Source: an uncultured Starkeya sp. (lineage in GTDB: Bacteria > Pseudomonadota > Alphaproteobacteria > Rhizobiales > Xanthobacteraceae). Taken from it: a DNA stretch of 64,000 nt. Made by a program: the position numbers and the translations under genes. Position 1 is the stretch's first letter. Each line of letters opens with the position of its first letter. Positions 8,817-11,875 of this stretch are shown in pieces. The notes beneath the pieces are model-generated. The model was not told the DNA's origin, searched no databases, and worked only from the letters and a program-made list of their open reading frames with translations. The DNA lies in assembly GCA_964543245.1 (NCBI GenBank), contig CAZIXP010000001.1:49882-113881 (forward strand). The letters run 5' to 3'.

Positions 8817-9328
8817 TCCTCACCCGTTCCGCCGCCTTATCCCGAACGCGGCCGCGCGCTGCGACGGCGATGCATTCCACGGACATGCCCAGCGCAGTCA
8901 CGTGCCGGTGCTGGTTGACGTTACGGCACCGTGGCGCGGCCCGTGCCGCGTGATGGTCTGCGCACGGAACCGAGATTGCCCGCCTCTCAGGCGGGATGGC
9001 AGCCGCATAGCGCGTCGCCGGCGCGCCGCCGACCCATAGCGGCCAATAGACGACTTATCCAACGGGGAGGAATACGACAATGAAGAGACGAGATTTCCTT
9101 TTGGCCGGCGGGGCATTTGCTCTTCTCGGTCTTCCAGCACAACGGGCATGGGCACAGAGCTCGAATGCCCGCGCGCGCATCGTCATCGCCGGGGCGGGCG
9201 CGGCCGGCCTCGCACTGGCCTCGCGGTTCAGAAGGGCCATGCCCGGCGCGACGATCACCATCATCAATGCCAGGAAGGAGCATCACTTCCAGCCGGGCTT
9301 ATATGAGGCCCGGCGTGTCAAGGTGTTT

Positions 9329-9527
9329 CGATCCAAGGTTGGAGCCTTTTTCGGGTCCTGCGGCGCAGGCCGCATCAACTTATATCCGGTCGGGCTCGGC
9401 GACCCGTACCCTGGTCCTTCTTGCATCGGCGTGCGAAGGCGTAAGGCGCCAAGGCGGGATGGGACCCTTCTTGACCGAGGCGTGTTGCAGCCCTGCCCGG
9501 CAACGGTCACGCATCCTCCTTGGATCG
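9329..9527 (-). ncRNA. Candidate bridge/seek RNA of the IS110/IS1111 element
   Basis: Lies downstream of the transposase, closed by a perfect 10-bp IR (cgatccaagg 9329-9338 / ccttggatcg 9518-9527), and contains short matches to the target flanks and donor junction. Confidence 0.5.
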
Positions 9528-9552
9528 GTTCACGGCGTGGTGTCCGTTCGGC

Positions 9553-10716
9553 TCACGCCTTGAGCACGGCGCCCTCAGGCACGAGGCCGATCTCGACATA
9601 GCGCCACAGGGCGACGAGCAGCTTGCGGGCGAGCGCGACGATGGCGATGCGGCGCGGGCGGCCCTTCAGCGGGCCGACGCGCTCGCGGAACCACAGGCTC
9701 AGAGCGCTGTCGGGCTGATGGCGCAGCCACAGCCAGGCGAGCTCGATCATGGTGGTGCGGGCCTTGGCGTTGCCGGCCTTGGCGATGCCCTGGTCGCGGC
9801 TCAGGCCCCCGGAGCGGAACGGGCTGGCGTCGAGCCCGACATAGGCCCCGAGCTGGCGGCGGTTGTCGAAGCGGCGATAGAATACCTCGCCGGTCAGCAC
9901 CGTGGCGATCTCGCCGCCGACCGCCTTGAGCCGGGCCAGGGTCTGGATCTTGGCCGCCTCGGGGTGGCCTGTGGCCTTCGCCGCCGCGATGGCGTCGCGC
10001 TCGGCCTCGATCGCGGCGATCATCTCCAGGACCAGCTCGAGCCGCCTGATCTCGCGCGCGATCTCGGCCACGAGCCGCGGCGCCAGCGCCCGGCCGTCGC
10101 CGGTCACCAGCCCGGCGAGGCGGGCGTGGCGGTCGCGCTTGAGCGGCTCGTAGTCGTAGACGCCCTGGCACGCCAGCAACCCCTTGATGCGGTTGACGTG
10201 GCGCACCCGCTCGCCGACCAGCCGGTGGCGCTCGCGGTGCAGGCGGCGGGCGTCCTCCTCCGCAACGCTCGGCACCCGCACCACGCTCACCACCTTGGGC
10301 TCGCCGCGCAGATGGGCCAACAGCGCCCGCAGCAGGGCGCGGGCGTCGATCCGATCGGTCTTGGCCCGCCGCGCCCGCCGGTTCACCTCAACGCTCGCCG
10401 GATCGAACACGTGGCTCCTCACGCCCTCGGCCTCGAGCAACCGGTGCAGCCAGAAGCCGTCGTAACCCGCTTCGTAGCACGACACGATCGCAACCGGCCG
10501 CTTGAGCGCCGTCGCCACCTGCCGGCGCAACCGCGCCAGCAACTCCAGCAGCGCCGCCCCGTTGCCGGCCGGCAGCGGATAAAGGCTGATCTTGTCGCAA
10601 AGCGGCGTCAGAACCGCCACCAGCCAGCTCTTCTTGCTCAATTCGATTGCCACGGCGACCGGCGCCGGATCACAATGAGACGTGGCGGGCGAGAACGCTG
10701 TCGTGCGGATATCCAT
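9553..10716 (-). CDS. IS110 family transposase/recombinase
   Basis: RuvC-like motifs (AIELSK, CYEAG, KTDRIDA) and C-terminal Tnp domain (GAYVGLDASPFRSGG, AKAGN). Confidence 0.95.
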   Translation of the reverse strand: MDIRTTAFSPATSHCDPAPVAVAIELSKKSWLVAVLTPLCDKISLYPLPAGNGAALLELLARLRRQVATALKRPVAIVSCYEAGYDGFWLHRLLEAEGVRSHVFDPASVEVNRRARRAKTDRIDARALLRALLAHLRGEPKVVSVVRVPSVAEEDARRLHRERHRLVGERVRHVNRIKGLLACQGVYDYEPLKRDRHARLAGLVTGDGRALAPRLVAEIAREIRRLELVLEMIAAIEAERDAIAAAKATGHPEAAKIQTLARLKAVGGEIATVLTGEVFYRRFDNRRQLGAYVGLDASPFRSGGLSRDQGIAKAGNAKARTTMIELAWLWLRHQPDSALSLWFRERVGPLKGRPRRIAIVALARKLLVALWRYVEIGLVPEGAVLKA

Positions 10717-11875
10717 CAGTCTCTCCTATGGGCTGTCGGGTGAGGGAAACCGAAACGGTAGCACCTCGCCCGCCGCGCCCGCATAGGATCTTCACCCTTG
10801 TCGGCGCCGGTCTCTGGTCGCCCGCGCAAGTGACATCACGCAATGCCGATTTCGTGCCGCGCGGTGTGGACTGGATCGAAGAAGCCGTTGCCGAGTTCGA
10901 TCCGGACGCAAACGTCGTGGCGACGGCCTCGGGAAGGCGGATCGAGTACGACTTCCTGATGGTCGCGACGGGCCTCAAGCTCGACTATGCCGCCGTCGAG
11001 GGCATGGACGTCTCGCTGATCGGCCGCGAGGGCATCGCCTCGATCTATGCCGGCCCGCAGGAGGCTGCGGCTTCGGCTGCCGCGATCGACCGGTTCCTGG
11101 AGACCGGTGGTGTCGGTCTGTTCGGCCGCCCGGAGACGGAGATGAAATGCGCCGGCGCGCCGCTGAAGATCACCTTCATCACTGATGACAAGGCGCGCAG
11201 GCAGGGGAGACGAGATGCGGTTGAGCTCAAATACAATGCGCACAATCCGACCGTCTTCGCCGTGCCGACGGTCAACGACAAGGTGACGGAGATGTTCGCG
11301 GAGCGCGACATCGCGGTCAACTACGCTCATGTGCTCAAGGCGATCGATCCCGGCGGCAGGACTGCGACCTATGCGACCGAAGCCGGCGACGTCGTGCTCG
11401 ACTATGATTTCATCCATGTCGTTCCGCCCATGCGCGCGCCGGACGCGGTGCGGAACAGCCCATTGCCCTGGCAGGAAGGGGAATTCGCCGCTGATGGCTG
11501 GGTGGAGGCCGACAGGGCGACGCTGCGCCATCCCCGCTATCCGAACGTCTTCGCGATTGGCGACATAGCGGGCGTGCCGCGTGGCAAGACCGCCGCGAGT
11601 GTCAAATCGCAGGTTCCCGTGGTGGTGGAGAATCTCGTGGCCGAGACAGCAGGGCGCACGCCGCAGGCAACCTATAACGGCTACACCTCCTGCCCGATGG
11701 TGACCGGTTACGGCACGGCCATGCTGATCGAGTTCGACTATGACGGCACGCTCGTCCCATCCTTCCCCTTCATCGATCCTCTGGAGGAATTGTGGGTGTC
11801 GTGGCTCATCGAGGAAAAGGGCCTGCTCGGGGCCTATCGCGCCATGTTGCGTGGACGCGCTTGAGGAGGACCGTC

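Follow-up and report, generated by a model that had tools for sequence, protein, structure and literature searches.

A gene for a sulfide:quinone oxidoreductase (SQR) in the genome of an uncultured Starkeya sp. is interrupted by an insertion sequence (IS), which raises the question of what placed the element there and whether its departure could switch the gene back on, as the preliminary description of this locus had proposed. The window analyzed here comprises 64,000 nt (GenBank assembly GCA_964543245.1, contig CAZIXP010000001.1, positions 49,882 to 113,881). We consider it very probable that an intact, single-copy element of the IS1111 group was directed by a bridge RNA into a near-cognate site and that the outcome is an ordinary SQR knockout. 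Three pieces were recognized at the locus from the list of open reading frames (ORFs) and the sequence, an SQR 5′ ORF, a transposase ORF on the minus strand and an SQR 3′ frame. In window coordinates, the gene fragments and the element are as follows:

9080-9299, plus strand: SQR 5′ fragment, codons 1-73, with the twin-arginine translocation (Tat) signal RRDFL and the flavin adenine dinucleotide (FAD) motif GAGAAG; ends in core copy 1 (CT, 9298-9299); 66 of 72 residues identical to homologue P0002
9300-10789, minus strand: IS110-family, IS1111-group insertion sequence, 1,490 bp, single copy; flanked by AG, starting with ATCCTATGC and ending in TTGAC..CCTCATAT(A/G) before the second AG, an arrangement conserved in more than 35 relatives
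10790-11864, plus strand: SQR 3′ fragment, codons 74-430, starting with core copy 2 (CT, 10790-10791)

The SQR 5′ ORF starts with ATG at 9080, preceded by a good Shine-Dalgarno sequence, and loses the SQR frame past 9300; an SQR-like frame picks up again at 10791 and runs to a stop at 11864. Joining 9080-9300 to 10793-11864 produced a single ORF of 430 amino acids (aa) with the junction inside the invariant HHFQPGFTLVGAG motif, and its alignment to ten homologues, all 430 aa long, required no gaps. The nearest of these, P0002, is 95% identical (66 of 72 positions matching in the 5′ part and 340 of 358 in the 3′ part). Used as a query, the 3′ piece retrieved thousands of homologues with a modal length of 430 aa, several of them named sulfide:quinone oxidoreductase at source. 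The reconstructed protein retains both redox cysteines (EMKCAGAPLK and YTSCPMVT), the GAGAAG motif and the RRDFL signal and, thus, carries no additional lesion in either half. These results bear out the preliminary description, which had stated that removal of the element and one CTT yields QPGFTL within an intact 430-aa ORF and that neither half is otherwise damaged. Its CTT flank is indeed present on both sides (9298-9300 and 10790-10792), while the core is best taken as 2 nt long; the restored gene is identical either way.

With P0002 as the query, the nearest solved structure was human mitochondrial SQOR (6oi5; E value 8e-71), while Aquifex type I SQR reached only 1e-20, which identifies the gene as type II. 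Judged by sequence features (FAD motif, two cysteines and SQOR similarity), the restored ORF is, therefore, a type II SQR. It shares with the type II enzymes (SqrB, human SQOR-like) of sqr-pdo sulfide-detoxification operons in heterotrophic bacteria both cysteines and a nearby persulfide dioxygenase gene (PMC9163753) and differs from them by its N-terminal twin-arginine signal. In the SVKSQVP segment (window 11600-11620 region), a Ser is common to this SQR and its 95%-identical homologue at a position occupied by Trp (SVKWQ) in the remaining nine homologues of the alignment; this change is lineage specific and has no connection with the insertion. The 3′ fragment was also considered as a functional truncated SQR and dismissed, as it has neither a signal peptide nor the FAD-binding GxGxxG motif.

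The element itself consists of the following parts:

9553-10716, minus strand: transposase/recombinase, 387 aa, full length (Pfam PF01548 and PF02371; NCBIfam NF033542)
10717-10789, minus strand: left end, 73 nt, containing TATGCGG as a subterminal repeat
9300-9552, minus strand: right end, 253 nt, noncoding, with a bridge-RNA-like structure (aligned scaffold 9317-9530)
9379-9389, minus strand: invariant CCGGATATAAG motif, which repeats the right-end tip and the core and is a candidate donor-binding segment; its form, ATATAAG or ATATGAG, follows the tip base
9316-9321, minus strand: conserved outward-facing TTGACA near the right-end tip (TTGAC in most relatives)

The transposase contains DEDD_Tnp_IS110 (PF01548, 1.3e-10) and Transposase_20 (PF02371, 2.7e-14) domains and scored 193 bits against NF033542 (transpos_IS110, ‘IS110 family RNA-guided transposase’; cutoff of 140). 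It retains the conserved residue in 115 of 119 columns with a conservation of at least 95%, including E25, E82, D121, D124 and S302. Relatives were taken as the best 80 of more than 304 confirmed loci that encode transposase relatives, drawn from genome contigs. Within these best 80, amino acid identity did not exceed 75%; on the basis of this ceiling for every relative found, the element would count as a new IS.

Element ends were defined from multiple copies inside the same relative genome. All relatives' elements start with ATCC(T/C)ATG, end in ..TTGAC..CCTCATAT plus A or G and have AG on both flanks. The base after CATAT, A or G, accords with the element's own internal motif (CCGGATATAAG or CCGGATATGAG; rows read by eye without a scripted tally), which assigns this base to the element and places the borders at 9300 and 10789 with a 2-nt core. 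This core reads AG on the element strand and CT on the plus strand of the window, at 9298-9299 and 10790-10791, and AG (CT on the plus strand) is the only flanking sequence shared in more than 35 related elements. A 2-nt core on both sides, here and in these relatives, with no longer target duplication, agrees with the IS110 family. Among the top repeats of a generic inverted-repeat scan, in which GC-rich noise was heavy, none was a terminal inverted repeat. From the ends, the circle junction is predicted to consist of the right-end tip CATATA, the core AG and the left-end start ATCCTATG.

A short left end (73 nt) and a long right end (253 nt) place the element in the IS1111 group. Relatives' right ends are estimated from element lengths at ~250-620 nt. 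Those of the close relatives L006-L038 carry 150-320 nt more sequence past the bridge-RNA module, giving elements of 1,640-1,840 bp, while the window element and the L045/L048 group are without this extra sequence (~1,490 bp). In most relatives (L006-L083), an outward-facing TTGAC(A) lies 10-18 nt from the right-end tip. By analogy with the junction promoters described for IS621 (PMC13626964), TTGACA may supply the −35 element of a circle-junction promoter; its distance from a −10-like hexamer of the left end varies between relatives.

Bridge RNAs of the IS1111 group sit in the right end, as reported by Durrant et al. (PMC11208160). We aligned the right ends of 23 distinct relatives (alignment A1) and predicted the structure with RNAalifold. 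In the 28 consensus pairs, 97.7% of cells were standard paired, compared to 34-59% when partners were slid by 1-3 columns; nine pairs showed compensatory changes, and none of 500 shuffles matched the observed covariation score. The first RNA module is a long stem around an internal loop with two variable segments, at the following positions in the window element:

9495-9501, minus strand: guide segment A, GCCGGGC, reverse complement of core G plus the right flank CCCGGC; matches the SQR site at six of six noncore positions
9470-9476, minus strand: guide segment B, GGTCAAG, corresponding in the same orientation to the left flank and the AG core; matches the SQR site, GGTGAAG, at four of five noncore positions

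Across the relatives, segment A is the reverse complement of core G plus the 6-8 nt right of the insertion, and segment B repeats, in the same sense, the 5 nt left of the insertion together with AG. When 14 distinct guide sets were compared to their own flanks, they scored 4.93/6 and 4.21/5, as opposed to 1.68/6 and 1.52/5 against the flanks of other elements. The guides of the window copy agree with the SQR site in 10 of 11 noncore positions, a value equaled by two of 182 cross pairs, both of which pair the window element with L017, whose segment A is the same and whose segment B is closely similar. Because guides match their own flanks in this manner, the insertion carries the signature of the element's own guide RNA, and the right end appears to encode a bridge-RNA-like molecule with target-matching and donor-matching loops. 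An apparent counterpart of the left flank (AAGGGT) in the right-end RNA, detected by k-mer comparison, was discarded as scaffold sequence; the alignment of the relatives puts the guide 3 nt upstream.

The same match speaks to the quality of the assembly. In a draft of 342 contigs, an IS contig might have been joined chimerically into SQR; however, the 10/11 fit of the guides to the element's own flanks practically rules this out. The 2-nt core on both sides, as in the relatives, the perfect abutment of the gene halves and the presence of the same fragments on several NCBI and Logan contigs also argue against an artefact, for which we see a negligible chance.

The layout resembles that of IS621 of Escherichia coli (IS110 group), where the two sides of the internal loop likewise correspond to the left flank with the core and to the right flank, the core is also CT and the same guides serve excision and insertion. 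In contrast, the RNA of IS621 is encoded upstream of the gene, in its left end, and that of the present element downstream of the gene, in its right end, and the scaffold sequences are unrelated. Closer parallels exist with IS1111-group elements that target repetitive extragenic palindromic (REP) sequences or hairpins, such as IS4321/IS5075 and ISPpu9 of Pseudomonas putida (PMC11208160, PMC12288879). Shared features are a DEDD-plus-Ser recombinase, a short left and a long right end, a core of only 2 nt, a right-end guide RNA and sequence-specific insertion into a repeated palindrome; subterminal repeats may be a further one, those of this copy being weak. The present copy differs from these in occupying a coding near-cognate site instead of a REP target and in being single.

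Read together, the two guides specify GGTCA-AG-CCCGGC, a sequence that makes up the loop and the 3′ arm of the stem in REP-like hairpins of the form CCGGG-TCAAG-CCCGG, and sites of the type GGTCAAGCCCGGC are the predicted preferred targets. The own genome contains four perfect target sites, two of which (contig C20) lie within hairpins GGCCGGG-TCAAG-CCCGGCC. The 15-mer CCGGGTCAAGCCCGG was counted eight times in the own genome and was present in 18 of 24 same-genus genomes, with at most 122 copies each, and other families of the order contained 0-13 copies; the reversed control pattern had no match in any genome. Copy numbers of the REP-like hairpins ranged from 0 to 122 per genome inside this one genus, and the hairpins (for example, at G000:C20:5302-5734 and in G002, G011, G017 and others) often form closely spaced inverted pairs ~50-60 bp apart. 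Relatives with similar guides (L017, L020 and L021) occupy the same kind of hairpin. Judged by its guides, the element is a REP-targeting IS with a guide fitting the host genus.

On the strand opposite to the QPGFT codons, the SQR site reads GGTGA-AG-CCCGGC, with one mismatch to the cognate sequence. Since the GC-rich codons of the invariant QPGFT motif mimic the target, SQR qualifies as a near-cognate off-target. In the mechanism we propose, the element entered the type II SQR gene at codons 72-74; this gene lies on an integrative conjugative element (ICE) of ~104 kb at a tRNA-Gly gene. Its own bridge RNA, from the 253-nt right end, would have directed the insertion, with guides for GGTCA-AG-CCCGGC accepting the GGTGA-AG-CCCGGC of SQR, one mismatch off. 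We infer from the sequence that this RNA is expressed and guided the insertion. The locus is of modest value as an uncluttered natural case of targeting by a bridge RNA in the IS1111 group, which has received less study, with guides legible directly in the right end, and suggests that a conserved protein motif with GC-rich codons can mimic a genus-specific REP hairpin target with one mismatch. The 14 guide sets with their flanks could also help in deciphering the guide code used by this subfamily of IS1111 elements.

The ICE ends in the window at the following feature:

56238-56312, minus strand: tRNA-Gly(GCC), right edge of the ~104-kb ICE carrying SQR; the 3′ part of the tRNA gene recurs over 49 bp at the other end of the ICE

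The ICE spans G000:C1:1781-106193, with window positions 1-56312 as its right part. At its left end, the 3′ part of the tRNA-Gly gene is directly repeated over 49 bp (G000:C1:1781-1829) with a tyrosine integrase gene after it, and TrbI is encoded at window 149-1348. As the preliminary description had noted, the IS is richer in GC than the surrounding cargo and resembles the host. Its GC content is 69.8%, compared to 64.5% for the island, 69.2% for the genome and 70.5-70.8% for the DNA past the tRNA, and GC at third codon positions is 92.5% in the transposase gene versus 78.7% in SQR. Relatives' elements have 58-66% GC, roughly following their own hosts. The REP-tuned guide and the host-like GC content support an origin in the host lineage, and the IS probably stems from this high-GC lineage rather than having arrived with the island. 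The earlier suggestion of a host-derived insertion is, therefore, upheld by GC content and by guides tuned to the REP-like hairpin of the host genus, while the identical chromosomal copies that were to be sought did not materialize; the genome holds no second copy, and same-genus genomes yielded no close relative. The transposase is the only one of the IS110 family in the 342-contig draft assembly, its 90%-identity protein cluster has one member, its relatives among PLSDB plasmids reach at most 63.5% aa identity and an exact-pattern scan of JGI metagenome contigs did not find the first 34 nt of the element. For SQR, no close orthologue was present in 24 same-genus genomes, and PLSDB plasmids contained only distant relatives (at most 70% nucleotide identity). 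The insertion was also called recent, a suggestion whose sole basis is the absence of further lesions.

The interrupted gene belongs to a sulfide-detoxification cluster with a persulfide dioxygenase (PDO) gene (4958-5839) and genes for a YeeE-like DUF6691 protein and SulP upstream of SQR and for DUF5368 downstream, all of which are retained. In a whole-genome tblastn search, neither a further SQR nor an enzyme of the flavocytochrome c type was identified, the sole additional match being the following remnant:

18610-18926, minus strand: second SQR, frameshifted remnant of codons ~325-430 (the last ~106), adjoining a truncated P-type ATPase fragment and beyond restoration

The claim that the split gene is the only restorable SQR, thus, holds. 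With the sole SQR of the genome interrupted, the SQR-PDO pathway known from heterotrophic bacteria (PMC9163753) loses its first step. The resulting allele is null, with the Tat signal and FAD motif on the 5′ fragment and both cysteines on the 3′ fragment.

Could this state be reversed? From genomic copies of IS621, circles and precise postexcision junctions were detected; excision was much less efficient than insertion and required transcription into the element and bridge RNA (PMC13626964). Precise excision of IS492 is cited in PMC11208160. A preprint on CazIS110-1 reports that the donor copy was retained in 93 of 93 colonies yielding circular plasmid and argues for a copy-out mechanism (10.1101/2025.10.25.684509). 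The literature is divided on the emptying of donor sites, and where it was detected, it was inefficient. By analogy to IS621 and IS492, reversibility of the SQR insertion is compatible with the sequence. An empty, restored site would read CAGCCGGGCTTCACCCTT, and split reads after excision would cross GGGCTTCACC.

Under the reversible off-switch of the preliminary description, circle excision would be frequent enough for sulfide selection to produce SQR-positive revertants, as for IS492 in eps of Pseudoalteromonas. The lesion-free gene halves, the exact consensus QPGFTL junction obtained in silico by removing the element and one core copy, a transposase and RNA scaffold that look intact, guides that still fit both junctions and the IS621 and IS492 precedents all agree with such a switch. 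As with IS492/eps of Pseudoalteromonas atlantica, an IS110-family element sits in a gene whose frame would be restored by precise excision, but frequent excision and phenotype switching were demonstrated there, whereas the present case is known from sequence, the element is antisense and no promoter was found. Specifically, no sigma-70-like promoter was found on the element strand in 8700-13100, and the element is antisense to the SQR operon; sulfide induction would, therefore, not drive excision. The inefficient, transcription-dependent excision of IS621 and the copy-out suggested by the retained CazIS110-1 donor also tell against frequent reversal. The same holds for the database evidence: the 90% clusters of P0001 and P0002 have one member each, so that no intact allele clusters with them, the empty-site 35-mer was absent from JGI metagenome contigs in the exact-pattern scan and the disrupted pieces recur on six to seven public contigs (NCBI and Logan) with no intact identical allele found. 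Nor does this genome, with its perfect sites unused, show signs of transposition. We, therefore, regard revertants arising at such a frequency as improbable and a functional SQR switch as very doubtful. In a conditional variant, read-through from the convergent minus-strand genes for a P-type ATPase and DUF2306 (12327-15830), which appears to be the only possible transcription feed for the element, would drive the recombinase and bridge RNA, leading to precise excision and to bet-hedging between SQR-on and SQR-off states on the ICE; this scenario seems to us highly improbable. If excision does take place, sulfide detoxification on an ICE would join the traits subject to IS110-type phase variation.

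Several observations weigh against an intact, guide-directed element from the host lineage. Residue 52 of the transposase (window 10561-10563) is Asn, where 30 related transposases show an Asp with a conservation of at least 95%. The subterminal inverted repeat, a feature of 7-17 bp in the IS1111 group, is poorly developed, with left-end TATGCGGGCG and the right-end reverse complement TATGAGGCCC agreeing at ~8 of 12 positions in register, while relatives such as L045 have a cleaner one, TATGAGGC. No Rfam family matched the element at gathering or permissive thresholds. None of 33 same-genus genomes contains a close relative, with the best in a 300-genome family sample at 70% aa identity. Lastly, the four perfect sites and seven further sites identical to the SQR site are all unoccupied in the own genome, which fits low activity or an insertion in an earlier ICE host.

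Some of these points also suit a dead-end pseudogenization, in which the element inserted in a previous high-GC ICE host or long ago, is effectively inactive and leaves SQR to decay like the second remnant. The single copy with its unused perfect targets, the Asn at a near-invariant Asp, the decayed second SQR and broken ATPase genes already on the island and the recurrence of the same disrupted allele on six to seven contigs with no intact one found are in line with this course of events. Yet neither the 430 SQR codons nor the 387 transposase codons contain a secondary lesion, and the guides are tuned to the REP of the present host genus, favoring acquisition in this lineage; we consider a dead end possible, if on balance unlikely. 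The near-cognate, bridge-RNA-directed knockout by an intact element remains our preferred reading. Precise excision could restore SQR, and any reversal is expected to be rare. By itself, the event is a routine IS knockout of an accessory gene.

Next to the second SQR remnant, a truncated N-terminal P-type ATPase fragment (18744-19307) continues straight into the SQR sequence (18610-19307, minus strand). The remnant is 76% identical to the first SQR at the nucleotide level, and its boundary with the ATPase fragment looks like a deletion junction.

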